A stretch of DNA of 64,000 bases from a virus. This document shows, one piece after another, positions 1-63,502 of this stretch (positions are counted from its first letter, which is position 1; every line of letters starts with the position of its first letter). The stretch lies in the IMG/VR virus record IMGVR_UViG_3300032307_000797; one strand, given 5' to 3'. The position numbers and the translations under genes were made by a program. The notes under the pieces are model-generated. The model was not told the DNA's origin. It searched no databases and was given only the letters and a program-made list of their open reading frames with translations.

Positions 1-3000
1 TAATACCATTACTTGTATTAAATGATGCACTTGTTGTGTAATAGTTTGTATCGGTAACAATCGACGCCAAATCAACACTACCACCAAACGCTGAACCAAC
101 TGCGGTAAACTCTAAAGTACTACCCGCCAATTGTACATTTGAAATATAATCATTTGTATCTGTTACAGTTTCGGTTGCCGACACAATACCTGTTACGTGA
201 CCATTTGAATCAAGTGTAATATCTTGAATATAAGTTCTACCTGAGTTGTTAACAGAAGATGCTGCTGAAATTGATGGGTGAGCGGTCAAGAATGAGGATG
301 CGTGATATCCATCAAGGGTATCGGCATCTAATCCACTTCCGCTTCCATCATTTGATGAGTGCCATACAGTTCCTCCGTTTACTGTTGCTGAACCACTTAC
401 CGCAAATGAACCACTCACAGTTGTTGTTGTACCACTAACCACAAGTGAATTCATTCCAAACGAACCCATCACAACTCTATCATCTGAGAATACCTCTAAT
501 ACAGGTAAACCTGAAATATCATTTACGGAGAATAATGAACCTGATAAACTATCTGTTACTGAGAATAACTGTCCAAGTGAACCTTGAACATCAAATACTA
601 AACTACCAGAACCATAAACTTGTAATGGAACTGTTGGTGTTGTTGTATCTGATTCACCATAACCAACTCTTACACCTCTAGCAACAGTTAAGTAACCGTT
701 GGTTGTAAGAGCCATCGCACCTTGTGCAGTGGAATGAGATGTATCTCCCCACCAAAAACCTCTATCGTCCTCATTATTGAATTGGAAGGTCATTGCGTAA
801 TCATTAAGACCACCATACGACACCCCACTTTCCATTCCTATAGTGTAGTTACTATCACTACCCCATAAACTTATTTTACTTCTTGTTGAAGAAGTTGTTG
901 TGTAATAAACCGGTGATGCAACCGCACTAAATGAAACACTATTTGATGTTCCTAAATCTTGGTTGATTGTGTATGAAGTAATATTACTTGCATTACCACT
1001 AATATTTCCGGTAATCTTTGAACCTGCAAGTGCGGTAATCCATGAAGGGTTACTATATGAACCGTTAGTGTAAACACCATTAGTTACAGTTGCCGAGTTT
1101 CCTGAGATATCAATACCCCAAGTACCACTTTCGTAAACATACTTAGCACCACCGCCGGTTTTTAGATAACCATCGGTTGCCAATAAGAATCTAACAGTAC
1201 CTGATTGTGAGAATTTAATTTCTTCATCATTATCATCTTGTGTGCCAATTTCTAAGTATGAACCTCCAGCCGCGTTACTTGTTGAAATGAATCTGATGAA
1301 TGCCGCGTCGGTGTTCAATCCCCATGTTAAACCTAAGTTTGAAGTTGCACCGAATGCAATATTACCGGTCATTGTACCTCCCGATAAAGGAAGTTTATTT
1401 CCGATTGATGTTGTTATGGTTGTTGCGAAGTTTGCATCATCACCTAACGCTGCCGCCAATTCATTTAAAGTATCAAGTGCGGTAGGTGCTCCATCAATTA
1501 AGTTCGTAATTTGTGTTTGAACGTAACCAGTGGTTGCATAACCTTGTGTTGCATGGTTACCCCAACCATATGCGGTATCCCAATTTGATTTGTTGTATCC
1601 AGTAATTGAAGTTGAACCTCCAAAGAAGGCACCAATTTCAGTTTCTGTATAATATCTACCATCAAGGGTTGATGAGTAGTTGTTTGTGTTTAAATATTGA
1701 TATTGAGTTGTATTTCCACCACCATAAATTTCACCTGTAGTGATGATACCGCCCGTTGAGTTGTTATCCAAATCAACTTGTGCCGGTGTTTCAGTCATTG
1801 CAGGGAAATTAGTTACATCTCCCGGGTCAACACCATCAGGTATCCAATCCTTAATAATCCATCCAGCATTTTGAATATCCTCAAGTAACCACGCTTTAAC
1901 TTGTGAGTTATCTAAATCAACATATACTTGAAGTAATGCACCATCATATGTTCCTCCATCTACAATACGAATGTATCTGAAAGGACTACCACCATAGAAT
2001 GAGTTAATTAAAACTGTAATATCCGAATAAGTACCAAAATGATGTGTTGCATAGAACACAGTCGATTGGTGATTACCACTTGATGTATCTCTCAATAAGA
2101 ATTTACCTGTTGCTCTATTCCCTGCGTTAACGGCAATTGTATACCAACCCGAATTTTTTGCAGTATCACTAGTTGCTTCGTATGGTAGATATCTGTCATC
2201 ATGGGTATGGTCGGTTGTTGAGAATCTACCGTCAATATCTACGGTGTATGTGTTACCATCATTACGAGAAAACGTAATTACACCGTTTGACGTATTAAAA
2301 GTTGCTCCCGTGGTGAAGTAATTTAAATAAGAACTAATGTAACCACTTGGGTTAGATGCTGCATAGAAATAACTTGAGTTATTACCATCTAAAGTATCGG
2401 CATCTAATCCCGAACCAGAACCATCAACTGTTAATAATTTTGATAGTACGTCGGCCGCAGTATATGAAGACGAATCTAAGTACTTACCGTCAATATCAAC
2501 AGTATATGTTCCTCCGTCATTTCTTGTATATGTTATAATTCCATTACTTGTATTAAACGTTGCACCTGTTGTGTAGTAATCGGTACTTGACGTTCCGTAT
2601 CTACCATCCAAATCAACAGTATATGTTCCTCCGTCATTTCTTGTGAAGGTAACAATACCATTTCCGGTATTGAATGTTGCACCTGTCGTGTAGTAGTTAG
2701 TGTTGTCAAGGAATGATGACAAATCAATATCACCCGTAAATGCACTACCTCCCGAACCTGTAAATCTAAGTGTTGAACCAACTAATTGTACATTATTGAT
2801 ATAATCATTGGTGTCAACAACTGTTTCAGTTGCGGTTGTTATTCCTGTAATATGTCCAAAACTATCTAATAGAATGTCTTGGATGTATGTTCTACCTGAG
2901 TTGTTTGAGGAACTTGCCGCGGTTACCGATGGGTGAGCCGTTAAGAAACGTCCGTCAATATCAACAGTATATGTTCCTCCGTCATTTCTTGTATACGTAA

Positions 3001-4965
3001 TAACACCATCAGATGTATTAAATGTTGCACCTGTGGTGTAGTAATCAGTGCTTGAGGTGCCATATCTACCATCCAAATCAACAGTGAATGTGTTACCATC
3101 ATTTCTTGTGAAAGTAACAACTCCATCACCCGTATTAAATGTCGCACCTGTTGTGTAATAGTTTGTGTCGGTCACAGTTTCACTTGCTGTGGTTATACCT
3201 GTAATATGACCAAAACTATCTAATAGAATATCTTGGATATAGGTACGTCCACTATTGTTAGAAGAAGATGCGGCAGATACTGATGGGTGAGCTGTTAACC
3301 ATCCGGGGTTGGTTGATACAGAACCGTCAGCCATTAAGAATTGTGATGATGTACCACCACTCTTAACGAATGAAGTTGCTCTCACGTTTCCGCTAACCGC
3401 CAATTTGTAACCCGATACTGGTACTATACCCATACCAATCTCACCTGTCGTTCCTAAGTAGAAATCATTTTGATTAAATCTACCCATTACCACGTGGTAA
3501 TCAGCAAATGCTTCGATAACAGGTAAACCTGAAATTGTATTAACCGAGAACAATGAGTTACTTAAATCATCGGTAACCGCAAATAATCTACCATTTGTAC
3601 CATCGACAGCGAATACCGTTGCCCCTGATACACTTTCGTAAACTGTTAATGTACCACCACTAATTGTAACATCGTTATTCGATGTTAAACCACTAACTGT
3701 AATTGATGTTGTAGTTGTGTTACCTCTTGCAGTAACTGTCGCAAGTGTGTCACTCTCAGAAGTTAGATATGAACCCGATGCTTGGTATCTACCATCCAAA
3801 TCAACAGTGAATGTGTTACCATCATTTCTTGTGAAAGTAACAACACCGTCTGAAGTATTGAACGTTGCGCCGGTTGTATAATTGTTTGTATCAACAACCG
3901 TTTCAGTTGCCGTTGTTATTCCCGTAATGTGTCCGTATTGGTCAAGTAGAATATCTTGGATATAAGTTCTACCTGAATTATTAGATGAACTTGCTGCTGT
4001 TACTGATGGGTGTGCAGTTAACCAACCCGGATTTGTAGAAACACTACCATCCGCCATTAAGAACTGTGTGGATAATCCACCTGTCTTAACGATTGTTGCA
4101 GCATTTAGAATTCCACCATTTTCAAAGTAAATTCTTGCAGTACCACCACCATCAACAAATTCTAATCTATCAAAACTTGTGTCTTTGTTGTAACGAATAG
4201 AATATCCGTTAAATGAACCACCACCACCAGCATACATTTGAATTGTTGTGAAACCGGTTGAGGTGTTGAGTTGACCTAATGTAAGTGTTGTATTGTTTTT
4301 ATATATGTTCAGGTCACCCGTCATGGTGTCTCCTGACTTAGAAACTTTGTTACCAATTGAAGTCGCAACGGTTGTTGCGAAGTTAGGGTCATCACCAAGT
4401 GCCGCTGCTAACTCATTAAGAGTATCTAATGTACTTGGAGCACTATCAATTAAATTGGTAATCTGTGTTTGGACATAACCGGTTGTGGCGTATCCATTTA
4501 ACGATGCACTTGTTAGGTATGTATTTGTGTCTAAAGAACCGTCACCTTTTAGGAACTGACTTGAGTTTCCTCCCGTAATAATAAATGAACGAGCTTCGAT
4601 GTCAGTTGTTGTCACATGACCTAAAGTTGTAACATCTTGTAAGGTTTGAGTTTCAGTATAACTTGTTAAGAAACGTCCATCAATATCAACTGTAACTGTG
4701 TTACCGTCATTTTTAGTTAATGTGATAATTCCATTACCGGTGTTGAAAGTTGCTCCCGTAACATACGTATTTGTATCAACAACCGTTTCAGTTGCTGTGG
4801 TCACACCTGTAACGTGACCGTTAGCATCTAATAAAATATCTTGAATGTAAGTTCTTCCTGAGTTGTTTGAAGAAGCTGCGGCAATAATAGTTGGGTGTTG
4901 TGTAAGGTATGTACTACCATCTAATGTACCATCCGCTTTAAGGAACTGATGTCCCGCACCACCTG
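1..4965 (-). repeat. Intragenic modular repeats of the giant fibre
   Basis: About 8 copies of YYTTGATFNTxxGvITFTRNDGxTxTVDxDGRY, 5 copies of HPSVxAASSxNNSGRTYIQDILLDxxGH and 2 copies of TLDTLxELAAALGDD. Exact DNA duplicates at 3063-3121/3786-3844 and 2487-2530/2952-2995. Confidence 0.9.
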
Positions 4966-6490
4966 TAACGATAAATGACCTTGCCGTAATATCGTTAGTT
5001 GTTACACTACCTAAAGTTGTTACATCTTGTAATGTTTGGGTTTCAGTGTAACCTGTTATAAATGAAGGTACGTTTGTTACGTAATTGTAATCAATTAAAC
5101 CTTGAATACCACCCGTAACCTTCAATGAACCAGTAATCTCGGTGTTACTAACGATTTTTACAACTGTTCCAGTATCATAGATGTTAGAGTTATCCAAGTG
5201 GTCACCCCCAACTGATTTTGGGATTCTTGTACTTGTTAAACCAACTTCTTGACCAAGAGAACCCGTGTTCCTTGGACCTGAAAGTAACATACCACCTGAG
5301 TAACTACTACCCGAAGCGTTCTGATAAATCCAGTGGTTATTTAAGGAATCCCATAGAAGGGATGCGGTTGCTAAGTGGGATTCTGAACCAGAATCAAATA
5401 CAACCAAACCACCAAATCTCTCAACCGGTTCAAATACGTTTGTATAAATGAACGGTCCTGTTAAGTTTAGGTTTGATGATGTTACATATACGAATGATGA
5501 GGTTCCAAGTACACTAATGTTTTGTGTAATCGTGATAGAACCACTAATAATTTGGTTACCGTTGATTGTTTGAGTACCAACAACATCCAATGAACCTGAT
5601 ACAACATAAGAACCACTAAGTGTGTTACTATTAACCCACTGACTTCCACTTCTAACAATTAAATTACTATCGGTAACCGAGGTGAAGTTTACATCATTCA
5701 ACTCACCTAAGAACTTATTAAGGTCGGGTCTGACCATAATGTCCACGTTGTTACCATATAATCTGGTTACCGCAGCAATTGTGACTTTAAGGTCGGGCGC
5801 TCCCGGTTCGGTAGATGTTAAACCACCAGGTCTTGTTGGGTCGGCATATAATAATGTACCTTCAAACCAAGTTTCTGCCGGGTCTTTAAGGTTGTTCGCC
5901 TCTAAATCTCCTGTATGTAAACCTCTAACCAAACCAAACCATGTGGCAAAACCAATATCATTTTGTCCAACATTTTCGGTTAAGATACCAACAAATAATT
6001 TTGATGGAACACTACCATCGGCAACCGCTCTAATAACATTTAATCTATCACCATGACTGACATCCAATGGGTCAACCATAACAACGGTACCATTGATTAA
6101 ATCAATACTATCTCCATTAAAAACAGGTGGGTAATATAATTCTTGTCCGATTTGTTGAGTGGAATTACCACCACCCATTCCTAAATCGAGAGTTCTTTCA
6201 TCAGGATTCCATGTTAATCTTCCAACTGCACCTACGATTGTGGAACCCGTATTAAAATCAATATAATCTGTACGCAGAGCACCCGTGAGTGAACCACTAA
6301 TAGAACCGGTAACTTTTAAACTACCTGTTACCGTATGGGTATCGGTTAATTGGTCACCAAGTTTGGCGTTCCCATGCACAGTTAATGAACCTGTCACGGT
6401 TTGAGAGCCGCTTACAGTAACTCCACCTTTAAAATTGGATGAACCCGATACGTGTAACGACCCCGTTACGTCTGCGTCAAATATTCTCAT
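1..6490 (-). CDS. Giant repetitive tail fibre/adhesin protein, partial (3' end beyond window), >2160 aa
   Basis: ATG at 6490 gives MRIFDADVTGSLHVSGSS...; the same frame reads DTNYYTTSASFNTSNGI at base 2. The ORF track lists nothing in this frame, consistent with no stop inside the window. Thr/Ser/Gly-rich with known fibre motifs (APSTLDTLNELAAALGDD, GSGLDADTLDG). Confidence 0.9.
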   Translation of the reverse strand, partial: MRIFDADVTGSLHVSGSSNFKGGVTVSGSQTVTGSLTVHGNAKLGDQLTDTHTVTGSLKVTGSISGSLTGALRTDYIDFNTGSTIVGAVGRLTWNPDERTLDLGMGGGNSTQQIGQELYYPPVFNGDSIDLINGTVVMVDPLDVSHGDRLNVIRAVADGSVPSKLFVGILTENVGQNDIGFATWFGLVRGLHTGDLEANNLKDPAETWFEGTLLYADPTRPGGLTSTEPGAPDLKVTIAAVTRLYGNNVDIMVRPDLNKFLGELNDVNFTSVTDSNLIVRSGSQWVNSNTLSGSYVVSGSLDVVGTQTINGNQIISGSITITQNISVLGTSSFVYVTSSNLNLTGPFIYTNVFEPVERFGGLVVFDSGSESHLATASLLWDSLNNHWIYQNASGSSYSGGMLLSGPRNTGSLGQEVGLTSTRIPKSVGGDHLDNSNIYDTGTVVKIVSNTEITGSLKVTGGIQGLIDYNYVTNVPSFITGYTETQTLQDVTTLGSVTTNDITARSFIVTGGAGHQFLKADGTLDGSTYLTQHPTIIAAASSNNSGRTYIQDILLDANGHVTGVTTATETVVDTNTYVTGATFNTGNGIITLTKNDGNTVTVDIDGRFLTSYTETQTLQDVTTLGHVTTTDIEARSFIITGGNSSQFLKGDGSLDTNTYLTSASLNGYATTGYVQTQITNLIDSAPSTLDTLNELAAALGDDPNFATTVATSIGNKVSKSGDTMTGDLNIYKNNTTLTLGQLNTSTGFTTIQMYAGGGGSFNGYSIRYNKDTSFDRLEFVDGGGTARIYFENGGILNAATIVKTGGLSTQFLMADGSVSTNPGWLTAHPSVTAASSSNNSGRTYIQDILLDQYGHITGITTATETVVDTNNYTTGATFNTSDGVVTFTRNDGNTFTVDLDGRYQASGSYLTSESDTLATVTARGNTTTTSITVSGLTSNNDVTISGGTLTVYESVSGATVFAVDGTNGRLFAVTDDLSNSLFSVNTISGLPVIEAFADYHVVMGRFNQNDFYLGTTGEIGMGIVPVSGYKLAVSGNVRATSFVKSGGTSSQFLMADGSVSTNPGWLTAHPSVSAASSSNNSGRTYIQDILLDSFGHITGITTASETVTDTNYYTTGATFNTGDGVVTFTRNDGNTFTVDLDGRYGTSSTDYYTTGATFNTSDGVITYTRNDGGTYTVDIDGRFLTAHPSVTAASSSNNSGRTYIQDILLDSFGHITGITTATETVVDTNDYINNVQLVGSTLRFTGSGGSAFTGDIDLSSFLDNTNYYTTGATFNTGNGIVTFTRNDGGTYTVDLDGRYGTSSTDYYTTGATFNTSNGIITYTRNDGGTYTVDIDGKYLDSSSYTAADVLSKLLTVDGSGSGLDADTLDGNNSSYFYAASNPSGYISSYLNYFTTGATFNTSNGVITFSRNDGNTYTVDIDGRFSTTDHTHDDRYLPYEATSDTAKNSGWYTIAVNAGNRATGKFLLRDTSSGNHQSTVFYATHHFGTYSDITVLINSFYGGSPFRYIRIVDGGTYDGALLQVYVDLDNSQVKAWLLEDIQNAGWIIKDWIPDGVDPGDVTNFPAMTETPAQVDLDNNSTGGIITTGEIYGGGNTTQYQYLNTNNYSSTLDGRYYTETEIGAFFGGSTSITGYNKSNWDTAYGWGNHATQGYATTGYVQTQITNLIDGAPTALDTLNELAAALGDDANFATTITTSIGNKLPLSGGTMTGNIAFGATSNLGLTWGLNTDAAFIRFISTSNAAGGSYLEIGTQDDNDEEIKFSQSGTVRFLLATDGYLKTGGGAKYVYESGTWGIDISGNSATVTNGVYTNGSYSNPSWITALAGSKITGNISGNASNITSYTINQDLGTSNSVSFSAVASPVYYTTTSSTRSKISLWGSDSNYTIGMESGVSYGGLNDYAMTFQFNNEDDRGFWWGDTSHSTAQGAMALTTNGYLTVARGVRVGYGESDTTTPTVPLQVYGSGSLVFDVQGSLGQLFSVTDSLSGSLFSVNDISGLPVLEVFSDDRVVMGSFGMNSLVVSGTTTTVSGSFAVSGSATVNGGTVWHSSNDGSGSGLDADTLDGYHASSFLTAHPSISAASSVNNSGRTYIQDITLDSNGHVTGIVSATETVTDTNDYISNVQLAGSTLEFTAVGSAFGGSVDLASIVTDTNYYTTSASFNTSNGI

Positions 6491-6585: not shown

Positions 6586-7038
6586 ATGATACACTACGAG
6601 CTGTTCGAGAAGAACTTAAATCATATTGAAAATTCTGATGTTTTTGTAAAGGAGATTTTTGAGGTTACAGATTATGATATCCAAATCACAATCAATAACT
6701 TTAATTCACTTTACAAGTGGGATAAAATGTTCGATTTGGAAGAAACTGAAAGGAGATTGAAAGAGAATCACCGATTTTTTATCTTTTATCATAAAGATTT
6801 GGTGATTGGTCATTGCTGGGCTGACCCCGTATCAATGAACGAATCTAATATATACGTATATAATGTTTTTGTTGATAAAACAAAACATAATAAAGATGTG
6901 TGTGACAGTACCGTTTATTTTTCTAAACTTGCCACGATATTATTTTCTGAAGGTTATCAAGTAATTCATGCAGATGTTGATGATTGGCATAAAAAATCCC
7001 AATCATTTTGTTTGAGATTGGGATTTAAATCAATTTAG
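6586..7038 (+). CDS. GNAT-family N-acetyltransferase
   Basis: 150 aa; VIGHCW, YVYNVFVDK and the C-terminal DDWHKKSQSFCLRLGF pattern fit GNAT motifs; convergent overlap with the sulfotransferase. Confidence 0.7.
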   Translation: MIHYELFEKNLNHIENSDVFVKEIFEVTDYDIQITINNFNSLYKWDKMFDLEETERRLKENHRFFIFYHKDLVIGHCWADPVSMNESNIYVYNVFVDKTKHNKDVCDSTVYFSKLATILFSEGYQVIHADVDDWHKKSQSFCLRLGFKSI

Positions 7039-7654
7039 TATTTTTTGGTGGTTCAGGTAACCTGTATTTTTTGGTGTGATGAAATCTTTTTGAAATTATG
7101 TCAACATCAAACTCACATCCAACGTATTCACATAATTCTTTGAATGAATCGTTATCCCCATTATTCAAAATCAAATCTTCATATTTGAAGATTGGGTACC
7201 CATAATCAATTGAAATATTTTTAAGGGTTTTGTTCCATTCTATTATTTGATTTTGGTAATCGATAATTTTATCTTCGGTTACCGCGTCAATTTTATAGTA
7301 TTTTTGAGAATGCCAACCATATAAACTACCTAATTCAATATGGTAAACAAAGCTCTCTGCTTGTAATCTGGTGTTCTCTCGGTATAATAGAATGATTTTA
7401 TCGAATGTGGTAACATACCAATTCAATAATTCATCCATATCTTTAAACACGTTTGGTTTATGTTCTTTTAAGAACATGTCCTTTATTAATAGTTCGACAC
7501 TATTGGTGAAATCAATATTATTAAAATATCGATTTTTCCACATGTGTCGATTAAAGGGTTCGGCAATCGAATTTTTAATTTCTGTTAACTCCTTTAATGT
7601 GTAAAATAGATTGCTTGAGGATGTTCTTGGGTATGTCAGAATACATACCTTCAT
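7025..7654 (-). CDS. PAPS-dependent sulfotransferase (Stf0-like)
   Basis: 5'-PSB loop ILTYPRTSSSNL, EPFN, 3'-PB motif IILLYRENTRLQAES, and YEDL. Confidence 0.8.
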   Translation of the reverse strand: MKVCILTYPRTSSSNLFYTLKELTEIKNSIAEPFNRHMWKNRYFNNIDFTNSVELLIKDMFLKEHKPNVFKDMDELLNWYVTTFDKIILLYRENTRLQAESFVYHIELGSLYGWHSQKYYKIDAVTEDKIIDYQNQIIEWNKTLKNISIDYGYPIFKYEDLILNNGDNDSFKELCEYVGCEFDVDIISKRFHHTKKYRLPEPPKNTKLI

Positions 7655-7800
7655 TAACTCAAATGTTTATCCTTAATTTTTTGAATTACCGAATTAAACA
7701 AAGAATTAATTATTAATTTATCAGACACAGTTGTTTTTCTAACAATCGGCGTTCTTTCGGTTTCGGTATACGTTCTATTTTTATTTGTTTCTGTATTCAT
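7654..7800 (-). CDS. 48-aa hypothetical peptide (start moved to ATG 7800)
   Basis: MNTETNKNRTYTETERTP...; starts 11 nt after the upstream stop and is TAATG-coupled to the sulfotransferase. Confidence 0.6.
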   Translation of the reverse strand: MNTETNKNRTYTETERTPIVRKTTVSDKLIINSLFNSVIQKIKDKHLS

Positions 7801-7810
7801 ATCACTATTT

Positions 7811-9451
7811 TTATTTTTGTACTCTACAATCAGGACATTCTCCACCAAAAATCACTCCCACATCAGATTCTGGTTGAACAACACAACATACGAGTTCAGT
7901 ACAATAAAATGGGGGTAACCCCAATGACATACAATTGTCCATATCCCCACCGGTATATAATCCGCTAAAACCTAAACAGGGTTCCGCACATTGCCAGTAA
8001 TTAGGGAATCCCGAAAAATACCAGCATAAACATCTCGGGGCATTGTGTTGTATGATGAAAAATTCAGGAGTTTCTGTTGATTCATCCATTGTTAAATACA
8101 AATCAATATCCTCAACATCAATTGAGTATATATTTTCATTTGAAAACGTGTAAAAATTTGAGACAATTCCTCTGGTTTCAAATAAATTATTGTTTTTGTT
8201 TACTATGACTATTTCATCAGTATTTGTAATTTGATAAAAAGATTTGAATTTTAAGACACCATCTCTTTTTATTAAAAGTTTTGATTCATCGATGTCAGAA
8301 AATTTTAATCCATTATCCAATACGATATTTCTAAGCCACACATTCTCATTTTTGGTTGAAATAGATTGAATAGTTGTGGCGGAAATCGTACTCCCTGAAA
8401 ATACGTCTTCTGTGTTTCCGGTATACTGTGAAACATATGCTGCGGTATCGACATCATCTAACCCATATAGATTAATACTCATAAGAGAATCTCCGATTTC
8501 CAATTGTGATGGGGAAACCAAAGAACCGTCATTTTTAATAATTAAATTTGTACTATCGGAATTATATTCAATTCCAAGACTCTTTTTTTGATATTTCTGT
8601 AAATATTTTGGTCGTTCCCATGGTTGTATTTCTAAATTAGAGTCAACATCCACTGTTAAGTCAATACTACATGTATTTGTATGAATAAATGGGTCAATTA
8701 AATTTATTATATTTAATTCAGGACCACAAATTAAACCAACACTTCGATATGTTTTTAATTTACCATTTTCCAAATCGTTAGTGTTGATTACATATTCTTG
8801 TAATAACGTGTTAGGTGGTAAATTGGTTTTTAAATTACTCAATTGTTCTTGTGTATCTATCTTATACACTTTTGGGTATTCAGAATAATTTGTTGTTGGG
8901 AATCTTTGTTTTATAATATAATTTGGTAAATTACCATTATTCCTTACTGTGTCCCCAATCATATCAAAACCAAGTGATTCGTGATTTATATATGTTTTAG
9001 CGATTGCAGTGGGTGAGGAGTCATACAATAATTTTAAAAATTCAAAATTATCTTTGGCATATGTTTCATCAATCAAAGCCGTTGGGTCGTATGACTGTCT
9101 GATTATTAATTTATTTGGCGAATCAACGGTATTAGGGGTTACCTGATTTTCAAGTTCAACGACTTGTTTTGTAATTGTTAAACCACTATAATGTACATCA
9201 AAATATCTCCCAAACCCGAACAAGGTGTCATTTGGGTAATCAGGATTTATCGCCTTTACAGGACCCGTTGATAATAATATTAATTCAATTTCATTAATAT
9301 TATTTTCGGTAATAAAATTATCAAAATCAACTTTATTAAAGTATGGTTCGATTGAAATTGGGGCAGCAACGATACCAGTATTCAATTCCAATACTTTAAA
9401 GGAATTATCAACGTCTTTAACAAAATCAATCGCTATTAGTACACTTCTCAT
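7811..9451 (-). CDS. Circularly permuted ATP-grasp ligase + Hint (intein-like) domain + C-terminal Cys-rich peptide
   Basis: IDF...KVLELNT at residues 8-25, then YIIKQRFP and LLQEYV. Hint-like segment from IIKNDGSLVSPSQLEIGD to IYSIDVED...IIQHN (N470), followed by a 76-aa tail with 10 Cys. Confidence 0.75.
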   Translation of the reverse strand: MRSVLIAIDFVKDVDNSFKVLELNTGIVAAPISIEPYFNKVDFDNFITENNINEIELILLSTGPVKAINPDYPNDTLFGFGRYFDVHYSGLTITKQVVELENQVTPNTVDSPNKLIIRQSYDPTALIDETYAKDNFEFLKLLYDSSPTAIAKTYINHESLGFDMIGDTVRNNGNLPNYIIKQRFPTTNYSEYPKVYKIDTQEQLSNLKTNLPPNTLLQEYVINTNDLENGKLKTYRSVGLICGPELNIINLIDPFIHTNTCSIDLTVDVDSNLEIQPWERPKYLQKYQKKSLGIEYNSDSTNLIIKNDGSLVSPSQLEIGDSLMSINLYGLDDVDTAAYVSQYTGNTEDVFSGSTISATTIQSISTKNENVWLRNIVLDNGLKFSDIDESKLLIKRDGVLKFKSFYQITNTDEIVIVNKNNNLFETRGIVSNFYTFSNENIYSIDVEDIDLYLTMDESTETPEFFIIQHNAPRCLCWYFSGFPNYWQCAEPCLGFSGLYTGGDMDNCMSLGLPPFYCTELVCCVVQPESDVGVIFGGECPDCRVQK

Positions 9452-9720
9452 ATTAATGTTTTTTCACTCTTTGGTAAATATGTCTCACCATCTACTTCTA
9501 CCCATTTTTTTAATGGGCAGGGGTTATTTGATTTGGTGTAAACTTTTTTACCTATTGGACATCCACATTCCCCACAAAAAGCCGACCATTTTTGATTAAA
9601 AATCTTCTTCATCGAGGGACAAGTTTCACAAATAGATGTTCTTTTATCGGCCAACTCCGTTTCCTGTAATGTTGGGTTATATGATGAGACCCAAGCGGTT
9701 ACTATTTCTTTTACATCCAT
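9448..9720 (-). CDS. Small 6-Cys metal-binding protein (DUF6171-like)
   Basis: RxxICxxC, CxxCGC and CPxxKW pattern. Confidence 0.65.
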   Translation of the reverse strand: MDVKEIVTAWVSSYNPTLQETELADKRTSICETCPSMKKIFNQKWSAFCGECGCPIGKKVYTKSNNPCPLKKWVEVDGETYLPKSEKTLI

Positions 9721-9728
9721 ATCAATAT

Positions 9729-9735
9729 ATAAATA
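9729..9735 (-). promoter_or_regulatory. Putative late promoter TATTTAT for the 9720-7025 operon
   Basis: Motif lies 9 nt upstream of ATG 9720. Confidence 0.55.
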
Positions 9736-9736
9736 G

Positions 9737-9952
9737 TTAATCGGTCTTTTTGAGACCGTAGTTTATGTACTTATACCAAAACCGTTCATGGAAGAAATAA
9801 AGGATTGGTTTTAGTACTAATTCCCCTACACCAACCATTGCGGCCCATTTAACGGGTAATCCAGCACCGATGGTTAACCCCACGGTTGTTAGTGTACCTA
9901 ATATTCTATAAGTAATTGTTTTAGCTATGTGTCTCTTTACCAGTGGCATCAA
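9737..9952 (-). CDS. DUF2061-family small membrane protein
   Basis: RHIAKTITYRILGT...LYFFHERFW signature. Confidence 0.8.
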   Translation of the reverse strand: MMPLVKRHIAKTITYRILGTLTTVGLTIGAGLPVKWAAMVGVGELVLKPILYFFHERFWYKYINYGLKKTD

Positions 9953-10286
9953 TCTCTCCTTTTCTTATTTTGGTTCCACTTATCTCACCAATCTCAGTTG
10001 GTGGTTCGTGGTAAATTACATCATACCCAACACCTCTACCGTAATTAACGGATTCAACATCGGGGATAATTGATACAAATAGTTTATCCCAATTCTCCAT
10101 AAAGAATGGGGTATTCATCAAATCCATAAGGACTTGGTGTGGTGATTTTGGATTATTTTCATCAACCTGAACATCTCTAATCGCAACCCAACAGTTCTTT
10201 CCTTTGTCCATTTGTTGTCTGATAAGCCATTCATGACCAGAATGCCAATTCTGCCATCGTCCAATAAACATTGCATATTTTTTCAT
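9921..10286 (-). CDS. HxGH nucleotidyltransferase (cytidylyltransferase-like; candidate minimal ATP sulfurylase)
   Basis: FIGRWQNWHSGH and ISGTKIR motifs; coupled to APS kinase. Confidence 0.75.
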   Translation of the reverse strand: MKKYAMFIGRWQNWHSGHEWLIRQQMDKGKNCWVAIRDVQVDENNPKSPHQVLMDLMNTPFFMENWDKLFVSIIPDVESVNYGRGVGYDVIYHEPPTEIGEISGTKIRKGEIDATGKETHS

Positions 10287-10714
10287 GAGAATAGTTTTTT
10301 GTATAGTTCAGTTAATGTGTCGTTTATCATTCCGTTATTATCCAATTCAATAAAATTCTTCTCGGGTTCCTCAAAATTCTTCACATGGTATTGGATTTTT
10401 TCACCAACATCTTCTCTCCTAACCAATATTTCAATTACAGGATTTTCTGATTTGAATTGTTCTCTAAGTTCCCTATATGGACATACCATGGATATCACGA
10501 CATTGAAATTTTTTTCATTACAAAAACGTGCAATAGTAAATGCTCGTGAGATATTCTCAATGCGTCCTTTTTCGGAATAATCTGTATTAGGGAAAATCTC
10601 CCTCAATTCATCACCGTCAATCATGATGGTGCGATGGTGTCCAATAGTGGAGAGTAGTTTGTTTGCTATGGTTGTTTTACCCGAACCGGGTTGACCTATG
10701 AAAAGATATATCAT
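10283..10714 (-). CDS. cysC: Adenylyl-sulfate (APS) kinase
   Basis: P-loop GQPGSGKTT, IDGDELR, RIENISR, SMVCPY, FEEP. Confidence 0.8.
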   Translation of the reverse strand: MIYLFIGQPGSGKTTIANKLLSTIGHHRTIMIDGDELREIFPNTDYSEKGRIENISRAFTIARFCNEKNFNVVISMVCPYRELREQFKSENPVIEILVRREDVGEKIQYHVKNFEEPEKNFIELDNNGMINDTLTELYKKLFS

Positions 10715-15065: not shown

Positions 15066-15993
15066 TTGATTTAAATTTATCTACGATTAACGCAGTTAAA
15101 AACCAATGACCTTGTTCATTTGGATGAAAATTGTTTAACATACTCTTACCCAAAAGACCAAGACCTTTATTTTGTTTATCGACCTCTTCTTCTAATGTTT
15201 TTGTGTCTACTTTTAAATTATATAATTCATGTAAATTTTCATAAAAAGTATGTTCCATGTTTTTAGATGGTTCAAAATCATAACCCGACATTTGAACAAC
15301 TAATCTCATGAATGGGTGTTCAATTACATTAAATGAAAATTGTTCTCTTTCTTTATAATGAAACTCATTGAAATTTTTCCAAACTACCGAGGATTTAAAT
15401 GGTATTCTTTTAACCTGTTCTTCAATTAAATTAAAATACGTTTTATCATATTCATGTTGCCAATCGTTATATTCTAAAACAGGATATTGATTTGGTGTTT
15501 TTGAAAACAAATGTTTTATTGGTTCGTCAACCATATTATTACGGTAATCTCTACCGGGTGATGTTAGTTGGAAGATTAGGAAGACCTCATCATATGAATC
15601 ATTTTCTTTGATTACATCGATGTACTCTCTTAAACGATAATAATGATTGATATTACAGTTACCGGGTTGTGAATTAAGTAGTAAATCTGATTTAAGATAT
15701 GTCGCAACTTTGCCAGCAAAAATGGTGGAAACTCTATATGGTATATTATCCTTATCTTCAACACATCTAACATGTGGTTTTAGATTGTCACCATACGTCC
15801 AACTCTCACCAATAACGACCAATAAGCGTTTACTCTCTGTTTTACAATATAATGTGACATTTTTATTGGCACCTTGACCAACATAGATTTCTTTTGTTTT
15901 ATTATAATAACATTCTTCATGTAAATTAACTTCGGATAATTCTTCCACTGAAGCAACATATTTTTCTAAACCTAAATGCTCATTTATATTCAT
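15055..15993 (-). CDS. SGNH/GDSL-like protein
   Basis: IGESWTYG, PGNCN, C-terminal FHPNEQGH. Confidence 0.65.
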   Translation of the reverse strand: MNINEHLGLEKYVASVEELSEVNLHEECYYNKTKEIYVGQGANKNVTLYCKTESKRLLVVIGESWTYGDNLKPHVRCVEDKDNIPYRVSTIFAGKVATYLKSDLLLNSQPGNCNINHYYRLREYIDVIKENDSYDEVFLIFQLTSPGRDYRNNMVDEPIKHLFSKTPNQYPVLEYNDWQHEYDKTYFNLIEEQVKRIPFKSSVVWKNFNEFHYKEREQFSFNVIEHPFMRLVVQMSGYDFEPSKNMEHTFYENLHELYNLKVDTKTLEEEVDKQNKGLGLLGKSMLNNFHPNEQGHWFLTALIVDKFKSNGY

Positions 15994-16781
15994 ATTAAAC
16001 CATCTTTTACAAATCTATTATACCACAATTCTGCCAGTTTTTCTTGGTTTTCTAATGAGGTGTGAAAACGGTATTTTACATTTTCTTTAACACCATTATA
16101 ATTCCACGGATTTAAATCAGAATTAAATTCTATCATATTATCACCGAATGTTTCAAACTCATGAGGATATAACATCGGGTTAATGCAATAAAATTTAATA
16201 CCCTCGTCCATCAACTTTTTCAAACCACCCTGTACTATCCAGCAATCTTGTTGATTTTTCCAATTAACATCATAAAAACGATTAAACCAATCTAAAAGAA
16301 TTTGTACTTCGTCTTTATTGAAAAGTTTTTCGTGGTGTCCGTCCCAAAATATATTATTTAATGTTTCACTAATCATTTTGGGGTATGTGTTATCAAATAA
16401 CGTATGTTCCGAACTCTTATCAGGAAACCCTTTATAATTGATGTTCTTTAACAAATCATCGGGTTGGTACATCTTATCTCTGTTTTCAGGTAGATACTTG
16501 TTAAAGTAACTGTCAACAGTTAAGTCACCTATCGGGAACTCAAATCTATCGGGAGATGTTAATCCAATTATTACACAATCCGGTTTAGTTCTAATAGCCT
16601 CTTCAATTTGTAATCTAATGGTTTGATTACCACAAGCAGAACGAGCAAAGGTCACCACTTCCCAATCTATTTTTCTACCTAAAATTTCAGTAAAATGTTT
16701 ATTAAAACCATTATCTAAATCATTTGTATCGTATGATAATGCGGACATGAAACTGTCACCACAAACAACTAATTTTTTCAT
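15990..16781 (-). CDS. SGNH/GDSL-like protein
   Basis: VCGDSFM, ARSACGN, C-terminal RFHTSLENQ. Confidence 0.65.
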   Translation of the reverse strand: MKKLVVCGDSFMSALSYDTNDLDNGFNKHFTEILGRKIDWEVVTFARSACGNQTIRLQIEEAIRTKPDCVIIGLTSPDRFEFPIGDLTVDSYFNKYLPENRDKMYQPDDLLKNINYKGFPDKSSEHTLFDNTYPKMISETLNNIFWDGHHEKLFNKDEVQILLDWFNRFYDVNWKNQQDCWIVQGGLKKLMDEGIKFYCINPMLYPHEFETFGDNMIEFNSDLNPWNYNGVKENVKYRFHTSLENQEKLAELWYNRFVKDGLI

Positions 16782-18214
16782 ATTAATCTATCTGTTTTTT
16801 CTTTATTAATTTCCAATGATTTAAATAATTTAATTACTTCATCATTACTAATCATAATATTAAAATTATGTTTTAAAGTTTCTTCCATTTCTTGTGTTAC
16901 TTGATAACGTTTATCAATATCCCAAGATGATATCTCCATCAAAGTATCGACAATTTTTTCAAATCTCTTAGTAAAGTTTTTTTCATTATCATAACTTTCG
17001 TCCCACCATTTATCAAATGTTTTAAAACCAAGTTCTTTTAGTTTTTTCAATGATAATGGATTACCAATTAATACAAATGGTTGTGCACAATATATTGGTT
17101 TGTATATCTTTTCAGAATAAAAAATCGACCTATCATCTATGAGTGATTCGGTAACAATATTCAAGAAGGTAACACTATGTGCTTGTTTATTTAAATTTGC
17201 CGCCTTATTATTCTCCAAATCACCTTCATCATAAACATAATGTTTTGATGCATCATAATTTAAATAAAATTCCAATAAACGTTTCTTAGAATGTTTATAA
17301 CTTTCATCTAAATTTGATGTGAGGATGTTAAAGAATTCTAATGGGTATTTGTTATGTGCCGCGCCTAACGACTTAATCGATTTATCTATCAATTTATCAT
17401 TAGTCATAAGTTCAGCAAATAACGCCAACCTATGTGGTTTTGTTACCCTATTAAATGCCAAAAAATGATATGGTTTTTTATTTAATTTGTTTTGTTCAAT
17501 GAACCAATTAAATGACCCTCTCATTTTATCTTTTGTGTGGTCAGTAATAATATGTCCACCTTCATGGAACCACAAACTGAATTGGAAATAGGAATATGGT
17601 AAAATTGTGAAATTATCCTCAATCATTCCCTTTTGAACCAGCTCAGGGAAAATGTCTGTAGTTAGGAAATTTGAAGTAATGACACATAAATTTTCTTTAT
17701 TGAATTCATATTTCTTAGATAGATTTGACATCCATATAAAGTCGTTATCATTCTGTCCGTAAAAACCTTCGGTTGCTTGTAAAAACACTACCTTAGCCCT
17801 ACCGTTTTTAACACATTCTACCACCCTTTCATCTAAATCTATCGTGTCATATTTGTAGAATAAATCATTATTATAGAGTACAACAGGATAAATAAATGAT
17901 TTATCCGTTTCATATATTTCATCCAATGCAAATACTGAGAAATTACCAAATGAATTATCCATTAATCCCTCAAAATTTTGACTATAAAACTTACATAGAT
18001 ATAATCTTAGTTCATTGGAATCTGATGGTAGTAATGTGTATGGAAACTTAACTCCACTTTCCTTTTCCAATAATGGTTTATTATTAAACTTGGCAGTGTG
18101 CCATGGGTGAATATCATATTCCGCAACATTTGAGTTGGGGTATAATATTCTACCATCTTCAGTATAAACTAAGATTTCAGAATACGCTATGTTTATTTTA
18201 ATATCATTTATCAT
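16778..18214 (-). CDS. Putative GT-B glycosyltransferase-like protein
   Basis: FNRVTKPHR and NIVTES...SEKIYKPI...PFVLIG, resembling the GT10-like nucleotide-binding C-terminus. Confidence 0.5.
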   Translation of the reverse strand: MINDIKINIAYSEILVYTEDGRILYPNSNVAEYDIHPWHTAKFNNKPLLEKESGVKFPYTLLPSDSNELRLYLCKFYSQNFEGLMDNSFGNFSVFALDEIYETDKSFIYPVVLYNNDLFYKYDTIDLDERVVECVKNGRAKVVFLQATEGFYGQNDNDFIWMSNLSKKYEFNKENLCVITSNFLTTDIFPELVQKGMIEDNFTILPYSYFQFSLWFHEGGHIITDHTKDKMRGSFNWFIEQNKLNKKPYHFLAFNRVTKPHRLALFAELMTNDKLIDKSIKSLGAAHNKYPLEFFNILTSNLDESYKHSKKRLLEFYLNYDASKHYVYDEGDLENNKAANLNKQAHSVTFLNIVTESLIDDRSIFYSEKIYKPIYCAQPFVLIGNPLSLKKLKELGFKTFDKWWDESYDNEKNFTKRFEKIVDTLMEISSWDIDKRYQVTQEMEETLKHNFNIMISNDEVIKLFKSLEINKEKTDRLI

Positions 18215-24601: not shown

Positions 24602-26458
24602 TTAACGGACCCATGTAGTATATCCTTGAGAGTCACTCGCCGAAGAATCTGTGTTATACCATCCTTCATATGAACCCTCACTGGTACCATGACCTAAATA
24701 GCACCCATCTGATGGGTCACCACTTGAACTATATAATCCCGCAGCTCCAATAGTTGATTGGTTACTATTCGCATTAAATGACGCGTCATTTTGAACCGCA
24801 TCCAATACAAAATATCCTGCATTTGATGCAACCGAACCACTTCCACCAATTGTGACATTGGCTCGAGCAACTTTTTCAGTGTATCTTGAATTACCTGTAG
24901 TTGTTAAACTCCATTCTGCGGTTACATGTATCCCTAAATTACTTGGGTAGGTATATGTACCGTTGGTTGATGCAAATCCCCAGCCGATTATTTTTACTTT
25001 ACTAAATTCTAAACTGTCCATCATCGAACCAATGATATAATCCCCATTTGGGTCAGGTAAACCTAATACTCCACTTCTATTAAGATAATAACTTGAACTA
25101 TTTCTTGAAGTACCTCCCGGTATTGTAGTGACGGACGCATTGTTTGATGCGACCATCATCCATCCACCATTTGCGTCGAAATCACAATATACTTCTTGTG
25201 CTGAACCGCCATAACTTGTTGGTTTAATCCAATAAGTTCCTCTTGCTCTAATACCTAAATTATAAAGATGTTGAGCATTAGGTGCAGCCAACGCCGCAGA
25301 ACTACCATCTTTAATTGCCGGTAAACTATAACGTGGTCTGAAATGTTCATATATGTCAAACATTTCTGATTGAGTTATCGCTCTGTTAAAAACCATATTA
25401 ACAGGTATCTTCCCGTTATAGTTATAATCATATCCTGAATTTCTTTGGGACAACATCCCAATACGTGCCAATCCACTACCATTATTGACATATCCACCAG
25501 CCGCAGTTGTTGATGTAACTAATGCGCCATTTGAATATAATTTTAAGGTTGTTCCATCATATGTTATTGAGTGCATACCCCACGTGTTATTACTCATTCC
25601 ATGTCCCGCCATGGAACCGTCTGTACCATTATGTCTCCATAATATTGTGGACCCATCAGAACCCATGTGATGCCAAAATCCATACGGATACGTATTATAT
25701 TGAGGGAAAGAATATTCCATATTTGCTAAATCGGTGGGTCTCATAACAGTAACCAACGTATATGGTGAACTGGATGATAACACATCTTGACTTACTTGAA
25801 TATATGTGTTGGTTCCGTCAAAGTTTAATTCATTTCCACTAAATGGACTGTTGACCACTTCAAGAGTGGAATTACCTGAGATATCAATTAAAGATTGTGT
25901 TGAGCTTCTTGAGCCATTAACAAATGGTGTTGCTATCGAACCCGCCTCAACTTGGGGCATTGTCACTTCCCAAGAATTATTATCACCACCGTAAGTACCT
26001 CCATATGAAATTAAATAAAATGTTATACTTGTTGTAGTATATGTTCTTGTCATCGTCACTCTTGTCCATTCACCCGGACAACATTTTCCATGACCCTCCG
26101 CGGTGTCGCTAATTCCACCCCCGCTCGTATAGATGACACCTCCATTATTTCCGGAACCACCTCCTAAATATCTAAAATATGCAGATAACGTATATGTTCC
26201 AGTACTTGGGAGCGATATTCCACGGTATAAACCATTCCATGAACCCCTATTATACATTTTATATCCGGTGGTTCCAAATTCGGTGATGAATGTACCGTCA
26301 TTGCCGTTATCATAGGTTGACCATCCGGACATTGTTGATGCATTGGATACTAAATTAGTGGTTGGTTTTCCTTTAAAAGATGTGTCGGTATCACCAGTAT
26401 CATAAAATAATTTTAACCCCGATGTTGGTAGTTTTCCATATCCTGTTCTTGAAGCCAT
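24602..26458 (-). CDS. LamG lectin + inserted CBM-like domain + C-terminal fibrinogen-like domain
   Basis: GLKLFYD...GKPTTN, FDGTNTYI, FNRAIT; GTYWIKP...VYCDFDANGGWMMV. Confidence 0.8.
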   Translation of the reverse strand: MASRTGYGKLPTSGLKLFYDTGDTDTSFKGKPTTNLVSNASTMSGWSTYDNGNDGTFITEFGTTGYKMYNRGSWNGLYRGISLPSTGTYTLSAYFRYLGGGSGNNGGVIYTSGGGISDTAEGHGKCCPGEWTRVTMTRTYTTTSITFYLISYGGTYGGDNNSWEVTMPQVEAGSIATPFVNGSRSSTQSLIDISGNSTLEVVNSPFSGNELNFDGTNTYIQVSQDVLSSSSPYTLVTVMRPTDLANMEYSFPQYNTYPYGFWHHMGSDGSTILWRHNGTDGSMAGHGMSNNTWGMHSITYDGTTLKLYSNGALVTSTTAAGGYVNNGSGLARIGMLSQRNSGYDYNYNGKIPVNMVFNRAITQSEMFDIYEHFRPRYSLPAIKDGSSAALAAPNAQHLYNLGIRARGTYWIKPTSYGGSAQEVYCDFDANGGWMMVASNNASVTTIPGGTSRNSSSYYLNRSGVLGLPDPNGDYIIGSMMDSLEFSKVKIIGWGFASTNGTYTYPSNLGIHVTAEWSLTTTGNSRYTEKVARANVTIGGSGSVASNAGYFVLDAVQNDASFNANSNQSTIGAAGLYSSSGDPSDGCYLGHGTSEGSYEGWYNTDSSASDSQGYTTWVR

Positions 26459-28373: not shown

Positions 28374-28404
28374 ATTTTAATTCTCTATATTTTATAAATA
28401 CCTT

Positions 28405-31567: not shown

Positions 31568-31587
31568 ACCAATAAATACCAAAAACC

Positions 31588-33053: not shown

Positions 33054-33054
33054 A

Positions 33055-63452: not shown

Positions 63453-63502
63453 TGTTTACATAATATATCCAATAAATATTATATTGTAAATTTTATATTC
63501 AA

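Follow-up and report, generated by a model that had tools for sequence, protein, structure and literature searches.

A Phage Protein Joining a Predicted Permuted ATP-Grasp Ligase, a Hint Domain and a Hypervariable Cys-Rich Tail: A Possible Hub of Post-Translational Ligation

Organization of the Locus

This work concerns a 546-amino-acid (aa) protein, and the genes that accompany it, encoded on a stretch of viral DNA from IMG/VR (record IMGVR_UViG_3300032307_000797). The whole stretch, 64,000 nt long, is called the window below, and all positions, including those of genes on the minus strand, refer to it. The window is a piece of an uncultured jumbo phage; it encodes a sigma factor, a primase and an SbcC-like gene, and nearly all of its genes lie on the minus strand. 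An identical copy of the 546-aa protein was found on a 318-kb contig.

An earlier note on this DNA had proposed that the protein fuses an ATP-grasp enzyme, through a Hint domain, to its own Cys-rich peptide. All the features that it had named are present in the sequence, where it had placed them. The core of the locus is laid out as follows.

9728-9735, minus strand: promoter-like box TATTTATA, read directly, immediately upstream of the 90-aa gene
9448-9720, minus strand: gene of the 90-aa, six-Cys partner, in ATGA overlap with the start of the 546-aa gene
7811-9451, minus strand: gene of the 546-aa ligase–Hint–tail protein, an open reading frame (ORF) read directly
8576-9451, minus strand: ATP-grasp domain (residues 1-292), from fold and residue conservation
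8042-8563, minus strand: Hint domain (residues 297-470), from the fold search and conservation of the terminal Asn
7814-8041, minus strand: tail (residues 471-546), 76 aa with 10 Cys and 4 Tyr; the stop codon is at 7811-7813
7654-7800, minus strand: 48-aa ORF with an ATG start; product of isoelectric point (pI) 9.9 and C-terminus I-K-D-K-H-L-S

The ORF lister gives the last of these as 64 aa from an upstream TTG; the relatives agree with the ATG form. The operon had been credited with a TATTTAT element of its own, and such a box does lie upstream of the 90-aa gene, but with 27 matches, where 23.7 are expected, this AT-rich window shows no enrichment of the motif. An 'atatttata' box occurs 20-40 nt upstream of the ligase or the six-Cys gene in most of about 40 distinct related loci (L009-L088), and is probably a phage promoter.

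Residue and tail counts given below refer to 238 full-length relatives of the 546-aa protein. Neighborhood counts refer to 80 IMG/VR loci, 63 of them non-redundant, with 830 distinct ORFs.

The ATP-Grasp Domain

The N-terminal part of the protein carries the motifs D9, E22-x-N24, Y178-I-I-K181 and Q218-E-Y220. AlphaFold2 modeled the full chain from a 33-sequence alignment with a predicted local distance difference test score (pLDDT) of 83, and residues 1-292 alone, from 50 sequences, with a pLDDT of 93. When this domain was compared with 48,161 PDB chains by VIA-align, the best match was YgiC (Z 8.6, root-mean-square deviation (rmsd) 4.1, 203 aligned), followed by GSS22 (Z 8.5) and GspS (Z 8.1, with model residues 1-288 on residues 310-608 of GspS 2io7). 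Glutathione synthetases (GS) of plants, yeast and trypanosomes, trypanothione synthetase and the E-64 ligase Cp1B came further down, and more than 40 ATP-grasp enzymes were found among the matches in all. Foldseek returned YjfC with an E-value of 1e-5.

The earlier note had placed the domain in the circularly permuted class of GspS and eukaryotic GS, and the fold search bears this out. The top 12 of the 48,161 chains belong nearly all to that class and span residues 1-285, whereas classical ATP-grasps (LysX/ArgX, RimK, TTL/TTLL, Ddl, PurK) score Z 4-6 and align only from residue ~52; among these the LysX-like matches, at Z 5.6-5.9, fall below the GspS-like ones. The E-x-N hairpin precedes the nucleotide-binding lobes, and the permuted enzymes align from model residue 1. 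In sequence-profile comparison with the PDB, the domain matched only the biotin carboxylase strand pair 'EFI...EMNTR' (residues 9-35) and hinge 'LLEKYI' (residues 204-219), with E-values of ~1 that are not significant alone; their order is reversed, which is direct evidence for permutation.

The E-x-N strand pair, the strand with the phosphate-binding Lys and the adenine hinge that characterize the ATP-grasp superfamily are all present. D9 is conserved in 235 of the 238 relatives, and E22, N24, K181, R118, D128 and R236 in 237 each; Q218-E219-Y220 is mostly kept. No Pfam family, GSP_synth and GSH_synth_ATP included, is matched at E <= 0.1, and the first ~95-145 residues of the structural relatives are absent: the domain corresponds to residues 94-378 of YgiC and 310-608 of GspS, and the N-terminal substrate-binding subdomain is missing. 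On the strength of the model, residues 1-292 form an intact, active-looking carboxylate-amine ligase of the permuted ATP-grasp class. GspS, YgiC/YjfC and eukaryotic GS-class enzymes phosphorylate a C-terminal alpha-carboxylate and then join it to a primary amine.

The Hint Domain

The Hint fold that the earlier note had seen ending in His-Asn was recovered clearly. Residues 297-470 superpose on Hedgehog (6tyy) with Z 17.0 and an rmsd of 2.0 A over 141 of 146 residues, on the NpuDnaB intein with Z 16.8 and on bacterial intein-like (BIL) domains with Z 15-16; Foldseek gave an E-value of 7e-7. A sequence profile reached BIL2 at a sub-significant E of 0.08. In the superposition, residue 297 of the model coincides with the first intein residue, and residue 470 with the terminal Asn.

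The beta-fold of the Hint superfamily is thus accompanied by the terminal Asn of inteins and BIL domains (G:7) and, usually, the preceding His (G:6): N470 is found in 235/238 relatives and H469 in 221/238, with Ser in place of His in nine. The other end is different. Position 297 is Asn in the window protein and H, K, G, N, T or Q in relatives, never a conserved Cys, Ser or Thr, and the TxxH block is not conserved among the 238 relatives. Asn470 is followed by A, P, K or G, the first Cys coming at +1 to +6, and the block F position is Asp or His.

Inteins of class 1 start from an N-terminal Cys or Ser, those of class 2 have Ala1 and attack by Cys+1, and those of class 3 use a block F Cys; to these is added a Cys, Ser or Thr at +1 (PMC4031507). 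The phage domain fits none of the three; by the definitions of that paper the class 2 and class 3 mechanisms are excluded, there being neither a fixed +1 Cys nor a block F Cys. It is not a typical BIL domain either, for the +1 nucleophile is absent as in BILs but so is the N-terminal Cys/Ser. Judging from the aligned residues, then, the Hint domain has lost its N-terminal nucleophile and TxxH block and has kept the terminal His-Asn. With no N-terminal nucleophile and a near-invariant terminal Asn, cleavage is possible only after Asn470.

Structure prediction thus returned both of the folds that the earlier note had proposed (ATP-grasp at pLDDT 93, Hint at Z 17). The motifs exceed chance, because they are invariant or nearly so in the 238 relatives and because prediction and fold search found both folds independently.

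The Cys-Rich Tail

The tail is an acidic, 8.38-kDa segment of pI 4.1 that ends in ...C-R-V-Q-K and matches no Pfam family. It is the fastest-evolving part of the protein, with a mean pairwise identity of 19% (13% at non-Cys positions) against 48% for the ATP-grasp and 32% for the Hint domain, as expected from the earlier proposal of a conserved core with a hypervariable tail. Identity to the closest relative follows the same order (ATP-grasp 87%, Hint 76%, tail 53%).

Among the 238 relatives, 186 have a short Cys-rich tail, 32 a tail of canonical Hint domains, 11 a Cys-rich segment plus Peptidase_S74, and 9 a tail of just 1-7 residues. The Cys-rich tails average 13% Cys, are rich in Gly, Tyr and Pro, and have an even number of Cys (6, 8, 10 or 12) in 181/186 cases, 25 having 6 and 73 having 10. 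Even counts imply that Cys residues are gained and lost pairwise, as in disulfide-rich peptides. The last Lys lies within 5 residues of the C-terminus in 151/186, with a Lys content of only 2.7%, and a terminal Lys is also present in the short and the Hint-type tails. An enzyme fused to a RiPP (ribosomally synthesized and post-translationally modified peptide) precursor is therefore not a full account of the family, given the ~4% of short and ~13% of Hint-type tails.

The canonical-Hint tails comprise one to three domains (CF...HN) and end in HN-K. In the distant relatives P0195, P0240 and P0206, and at L005:1939-4305, two or three canonical Hint/intein-like domains follow the degenerate Hint in tandem; these could be either parasitic mini-inteins or functional release modules. 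In the subclass with Peptidase_S74 (11/238 by motif; 8/10 scanned tails by Pfam, best E 2.1e-7, with S-D-x-x-x-K conserved), the Cys-rich segment ends in C-N-x-x-K directly before that domain. With Hint before it and S74 after it, the segment sits between two autoprocessing domains. Peptidase S74 is absent from the window protein.

Two presumed virion proteins at 62544-63988 (minus strand) have 23 and 14 Cys plus Thr/Pro stalks, so that this phage shows Cys-rich modules on other genes too. No significant BLAST similarity was found between the ligase tail and the Cys-rich modules of these proteins (62.5-64 kb).

Two Small Partner Proteins

The neighborhood of the ligase gene is conserved at its two flanks, as the earlier proposal would have it. 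In 78/80 IMG/VR loci the ligase gene is followed, within 60 nt, by the start of a homologous ORF of 25-50 aa, and the same holds for L001, L003, L005 and L007; the ORF is conserved irrespective of the tail type. In a three-chain complex prediction, the 48-aa protein obtained an interaction prediction score from aligned errors (ipSAE) of 0.85, against 0.02 for the best control. That mark is met by 58/80 solved complexes and 2/110 mismatched pairs, counts that hold here only roughly, as the alignments were author-made and three chains were modeled. Runs agreed in at least 97% of contacts, with a pLDDT of at least 89 for the 48-aa partner.

In the model nearly the whole peptide is in contact with ligase residues 6-23, 65-71, 126-149 and 228-285, pairs as a beta-strand with residues 254-260, and touches Hint residues 433-437. 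The 48-aa protein is therefore probably a clasp subunit that wraps the ligase. The earlier note had listed it as a 48-aa peptide of the operon; the complex score of 0.85 speaks for a tightly bound subunit and not for a second peptide product, and a role as RiPP precursor was set aside because nearly all of its residues are modeled in contact with the ligase.

The 90-aa protein (phrog_13558, E 3.4e-9) is zinc-ribbon-like, has the pattern C-x-x-C...C-x-x-C-G-C...C and ends in ...S-E-K-T-L-I-COOH. Invariant in 36 sequences are C31, C34, C49, C52, C54 and C68, together with R27, K59 and W73. Its gene adjoins that of the ligase, or lies within 2 kb of it, in at least 71/79 IMG/VR loci; the six-Cys protein is a near-universal partner of the ligase. 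In the three-chain model its residue 89 touches the clasp peptide on the ligase.

A Shared C-Terminal Tag

The C-terminus of the six-Cys protein recurs on other products of the surrounding gene island. Summarized as K-x-K-[S/T]-Φ-Φ-COOH (Φ, hydrophobic), the tag is found in a strict form, K-x(0-2)-[S/T/N]-Φ-Φ-COOH, on 212 and in a loose form, K-x(0-3)-Φ-Φ-COOH, on 338 of the 830 distinct island ORFs (26-41%). Besides the six-Cys protein, its carriers include 2-oxoglutarate (2OG) oxygenases (55/74), a 213-aa family (29/30), sulfotransferases, SGNH proteins, a halogenase and, in locus L091, a SET protein. Within the window it ends the 209-aa, 90-aa, 263-aa and 478-aa products, all encoded at 7-19 kb; no such end was found in the other 46 kb (20-64 kb).

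The Pelagibacter phage HTVC008M and the Prochlorococcus phage P-SSM2 have homologous 2OG oxygenases and Trp halogenase without the ligase–Hint gene. There the pattern K-x(0-3)-Φ-Φ-COOH ends 0/25 products in the HTVC008M region and 0/19 in the P-SSM2 region. A relative whose tail is only 7 aa (HN-KPKQPKK) still lies in a tag-rich island, meaning that the tag goes with the ligase–Hint core and not with the Cys-rich peptide.

An origin of the tag as a by-product of ATGA start/stop overlaps is excluded, as it also occurs before spacers of 25-50 nt and at convergent gene ends, and is written with many codons. The varied codons, and the occurrence without start/stop overlap, indicate selection at the protein level.

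Distribution of the Family

The 546-aa protein matches no family in Pfam (E <= 0.1) or PHROGs. A word-indexed search of metagenomes gave more than 140 relatives, an exhaustive one 245 clusters at 50% identity, and IMG/VR gave 255 matches to the ligase–Hint family. By tblastn, three family members and the six-Cys protein found no homologue in 50,697 cultured-phage records, where the only matches were to the canonical intein parts of one distant relative; the first 20 kb of the window gave no megablast match to phages.

In 185,579 cellular genomes the family occurs at two loci, both on contigs of metagenome-assembled genomes (MAGs) that look viral or mis-binned. The only long one, L093 (CBFHJJ010000001.1, 248 kb), comes from the bin of a Flavobacteriaceae MAG and may be a co-binned jumbo phage, hence a weak hint to the host.

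Neighboring Enzymes

The following genes flank the core of the locus or lie further along the island.

6586-7038, plus strand: 150-aa GNAT acetyltransferase, convergent to the 209-aa gene
7025-7654, minus strand: 209-aa sulfotransferase-like protein, ending in ...K-N-T-K-L-I
9737-9952, minus strand: DUF2061 membrane protein (Pfam DUF2061, E 1.8e-11)
9921-10286, minus strand: 121-aa cytidylyltransferase-like protein (a relative matches CTP_transf_like, 2.2e-6)
10283-10714, minus strand: adenosine 5'-phosphosulfate (APS) kinase (Pfam APS_kinase, E 5.4e-13)
15990-16781 and 16778-18214, minus strand: two further island genes with the loose-form tag (263 aa, ...V-K-D-G-L-I; 478 aa, ...K-T-D-R-L-I)

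The 209-aa protein has no Pfam or PHROG match. Searched against the PDB (E <= 1), its family profile hit three chains, all of them sulfotransferases: that of CurM (0.0076), the polyketide-synthase chain 4gox (OLS sulfotransferase; 0.1) and NodH (0.25). A P-R-S-G-S-T loop, R92 and S101 are conserved, and its neighbors in a protein language-model atlas are sulfotransferase clusters (score 0.97). The sulfotransferase label given in the earlier note thus draws on weak profile matches (CurM, NodH) and atlas neighbors but gains nothing from Pfam.

Homologues of this gene occur in 25/63 loci. It is absent from the closest relatives, L001 and L003, as are the APS kinase, the 121-aa gene and DUF2061; it is an accessory and not a core gene, inserted with a set for the supply of 3'-phosphoadenosine 5'-phosphosulfate (PAPS). 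Sulfotransferase-like proteins as a whole are present in 51/63 non-redundant loci and form two supported families, one like CurM/NodH and one like heparan-sulfate 2-O-sulfotransferase (E 1.8e-6), plus a third labeled only by its N-terminal motif. In 14-18/63 loci (also at L091:3851-4649), the genes of APS kinase, DUF2061 and a ~120-aa cytidylyltransferase-like protein, a possible minimal ATP sulfurylase, are found together beside the ligase–Hint module, a set that points to phage-supplied PAPS for the recurrent sulfotransferases.

The GNAT gene, counted as a partner in the earlier note, belongs to Pfam Acetyltransf_1 (E 1.7e-4; 22.3 bits against a cut-off of 20.7) and to phrog_3810. It is indeed present and convergent, also in L001 and L003, but this arrangement is conserved only in the closest jumbo-phage clade; elsewhere GNAT is rare, with 6 homologous ORFs among 830. 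More widespread are 2OG oxygenases (47/63 loci), and SGNH-like proteins, Trp halogenase (E 2.7e-83), APS kinase and carbamoyltransferase are frequent. UDP-glucose dehydrogenase and glycosyltransferase-LamG genes are found in the islands as well.

The island of the short-tail relative, L091, encodes a tagged SET-domain protein (L091:8159-8536) and an 85-aa biotin/lipoyl-attachment-like domain (L091:10916-11173). These two predicted products hint that the island targets proteins rather than sugars.

Directly beyond GNAT in all close relatives stands a giant ORF (window 2-6490, minus strand), of more than 2163 aa in the window and 3359-4057 aa in relatives, with zero Cys and 15% Thr. At 26458-35564 (minus strand) there is a run of paralogous LamG-domain proteins with a common C-terminal motif, K/R-x-R-[F/Y]-G-[I/L] (...NYKKRFGI, ...NIKRKYGI and ...SKRRFGL, for example), possibly an attachment or assembly motif of fiber-like proteins.

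Proposed Mechanism and Alternatives

We propose, with confidence no better than even, that a phage module for post-translational ligation has the 546-aa protein as its hub. The ligase–Hint–tail hub would probably act once per molecule, the modeled 48-aa clasp wrapping the ligase domain and touching the Hint domain. Asn470 would cyclize to a succinimide, cutting the Asn470-Ala471 bond and leaving the ligase–Hint part in one piece. The freed product would be an 8.4-kDa, disulfide-type peptide with a new alpha-amine and a conserved Lys near its C-terminal end. Less certainly, the ligase would make an ATP-dependent amide bond on the tail while the latter is tethered or docked.

The chemistry we prefer, by analogy with glutathione and spermidine in GspS, would link the tail's terminal Lys, through its epsilon-amine, to the C-terminal carboxylate of a tagged partner. 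Either the six-Cys protein or the island enzymes with K-x-K-[S/T]-Φ-Φ-COOH could serve as that partner, and Hint cleavage would then free the conjugate. Head-to-tail closure of the freed peptide would be our second choice. The ligation or cyclization, sulfation and acetylation that the earlier note had envisaged for the tail are conjectural. Alternatively, the tag might only dock the tailoring enzymes (sulfotransferases, 2OG oxygenases, Trp halogenase, SGNH hydrolases, SET, GNAT) on the hub.

Supposing that the hub model is right, we would roughly rank the joining of a tagged carboxylate to the tail Lys, followed by Hint release, as the leading option, tentative as it is. Head-to-tail or other ligation inside the peptide comes after it; capping of the tail or tag carboxylate with a small amine, and some other ligase chemistry, share the last place. 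In its most general form, the preferred chemistry would amount to protein conjugation without E1, E2 or E3: the carboxylate of any K-x-K-[S/T]-Φ-Φ protein would be phosphorylated and placed on the ligase's own tail Lys, and the Hint domain would cut the product free. We consider this rather unlikely. Were it true, one fast-evolving, disulfide-rich 'address label' would be put post-translationally on a whole set of enzymes.

Several points weigh against the hub model. Cleavage, ligation and binding, in fact all steps beyond the folds, are ones that we infer. The ATP-grasp Z-scores (~8.6) are moderate, homogeneous as the list of matches is, and sequence profiles gave nothing significant in Pfam or the PDB for this domain. 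The ipSAE score covers the 48-aa partner only. The tag presumably resembles the MuA-type ends recognized by ClpX; the ligase need not read it, and it may be a docking peptide or a degron only. Even Cys counts also fit paired metal ligands, and the near-terminal Lys is missing from 35/186 Cys-rich tails, for example those ending in ...C-Q-P-V-C. About 4% of relatives have tails of 1-7 aa and about 13% have canonical Hint domains as their tail, so a released Cys-rich peptide is not essential to the core function. As for the cleavage itself, 193/238 relatives have Asp at the position that an alignment by eye puts opposite His F:13, and Asn cyclization without a prior branched intermediate is slow in most inteins (PMC4031507).

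The strongest rival is unlikely too. It supposes that the tail is incidental and that the system resembles Pup or a carrier protein: the ligase would activate the C-terminal carboxylate of the six-Cys protein, as LysX does with LysW, or of all tagged proteins, and join it to a small amine or amino acid. The C-terminus would be capped or extended, for example tethering a metabolite or masking a degron, and the Hint domain and tail would regulate or localize the ligase. Such a role suits the use of C-terminal alpha-carboxylates in GspS/GS-class chemistry and the presence of LysX/ArgX-LysW complexes among the fold matches, and it suits the six-Cys partner, which is near-universal, always bears the basic-hydrophobic tag and, in the three-chain model, touches the clasp peptide through residue 89. 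The restriction of the tag to module-bearing phages, and its abundance around the relative with the 7-aa tail, can also be read this way. However, the terminal Asn (235/238), the hypervariable, even-Cys tail and its Lys end are then left unexplained; LysX-like matches (Z 5.6-5.9) are weaker than GspS-like ones, and no small-molecule pathway is evident.

Less probable still is a polymorphic effector of the PT-HINT type, with the Hint domain freeing a variable C-terminal toxin, adhesin or signaling peptide, and the ATP-grasp doing an unrelated job (a thiol/polyamine conjugate as a metabolic auxiliary gene, or delivery and anchoring). Polymorphic toxins do have such a layout, their Hint domain standing between an N-terminal part that is conserved and a C-terminus that is hypervariable, and the composition of the tail (13% Cys, Gly/Tyr/Pro, paired Cys) resembles that of secreted disulfide-rich peptides; moreover, some relatives have an S74 tail-fiber chaperone, and the gene adjoins giant genes of structural type. 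Yet the gene is not followed by a variable immunity gene: the downstream ORF is conserved across tail types and is a predicted ligase binder. Pfam PT-HINT does not match the window Hint, no secretion or trafficking domain was found, and the constancy of the ligase–Hint fusion across the family argues for joint work of the two domains.

Quite improbable, finally, is that nothing is processed, the Hint domain being a degenerate structural module, the tail a metal-binding domain and the substrate a sugar or small molecule of a glycan/sulfation island. This reading can point to the loss of the Hint domain's N-terminal machinery, to island genes of the kind usual in glycan tailoring (UDP-glucose dehydrogenase, carbamoyltransferase, glycosyltransferase-LamG and HS-2-O-sulfotransferase-like), and to Cys counts of 8 and 12, which are compatible with zinc sites, but the terminal Asn/His stays near-invariant while the rest of the Hint domain drifts, a signature of retained Asn-lyase chemistry, tails with 6 and 10 Cys are common (25 + 73 of 186), and other self-cleaving domains replace tails wholesale.

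If the hub model is true, this would be the first ligase to share a polypeptide with the peptide that it acts on and with a Hint 'release catch' working on one side only. Such maturation would follow a new logic, intermediate between RiPPs, the autoprocessing of Hedgehog and BIL domains, and ubiquitin-like tagging. Abundant among uncultured phages of aquatic habitats, the family organizes an island of enzymes for sulfation, hydroxylation, halogenation and methylation; what phages use such enzymes for has long been unclear. The common C-terminal tag offers a direct experimental handle on membership of the system. In practical terms, the locus offers a Hint domain limited to C-cleavage, a minimal ATP-grasp ligase of two subunits and, ready-made in nature, a library of small disulfide-rich scaffolds.

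Comparison with Known Systems

The individual domains belong to known superfamilies. In the literature searched we found no precedent for their combination, in which a permuted ATP-grasp, a one-sided Hint domain and a polymorphic peptide are accompanied by a clasp subunit, by a partner of the zinc-ribbon type and by an enzyme island addressed through a tag. Full-text literature searches returned no description of the permuted ATP-grasp–Hint–peptide architecture.

The closest likeness of residues 1-285 is to GspS, E. coli YgiC/YjfC and eukaryotic GS, which have the same fold and the same permuted strand order, with the Mg-binding D...E-x-N hairpin at the N-terminus, before the nucleotide-binding Lys and the Q-E-Y hinge. 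The phage ligase differs from them in lacking Pfam membership and the first ~95-145 residues, in being viral, and in having a separate predicted 48-aa clasp as well as a fused Hint domain and peptide. Graspetides of the microviridin type, which have MdnB/MdnC-type ATP-grasps and leader-bearing precursors with omega-ester/amide core motifs, also couple an ATP-grasp genetically to a peptide, here possibly Lys-cross-linked, with tailoring enzymes nearby. Their ATP-grasp, however, is of another class (the RiPP-associated 7mgv reaches only Z 4.3, from residue 52), and the phage peptide is fused through a self-cleaving domain instead of bearing a leader, with no Thr/Ser-Asp/Glu core motif.

BIL domains, including those of the Tetrahymena BUBL locus, and Hedgehog share the Hint fold (Z 15-17) and use it for autoprocessing instead of splicing. 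As in BILs, there is no C-extein +1 nucleophile (PMC4031507), and the terminal His-Asn is suited to cleavage by Asn cyclization. Unlike BIL, Hedgehog and class 1 intein domains, the phage Hint has no N-terminal Cys/Ser, hence one junction only, and unlike class 3 and class 2 inteins it has no block F Cys and no fixed +1 Cys. PT-HINT polymorphic toxins likewise have a Hint domain that links a conserved N-terminal region to a C-terminal module of hypervariable sequence. The phage protein has no immunity gene and no trafficking domain, its N-terminal region is an enzyme, and it falls outside PT-HINT; hits of the Pfam model are confined to the additional canonical Hint domains that distant relatives carry.

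LysW/LysX and Pup/PafA provide a parallel: the gene of a carboxylate-amine ligase adjoins that of a small Cys-rich protein of the zinc-ribbon type whose C-terminal tail is conserved, and by analogy one can conceive of acyl-phosphate chemistry at the C-terminus of a protein. The tail in the phage is basic-hydrophobic (K-x-K-S/T-Φ-Φ) and not acidic, many unrelated enzymes carry the same one, and the ligase is GspS-like rather than RimK/LysX-like or GS-like.

RaxX/RaxST/RaxPQ of Xanthomonas is a system for a sulfated RiPP with its sulfotransferase and PAPS-supply genes. In a similar way, genes for an APS kinase, a possible minimal sulfurylase and a putative sulfotransferase lie in the window beside a Tyr-containing peptide. 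The sulfotransferases here, however, resemble the CurM/NodH and heparan-sulfate 2-O types, which usually act on small molecules or sugars.

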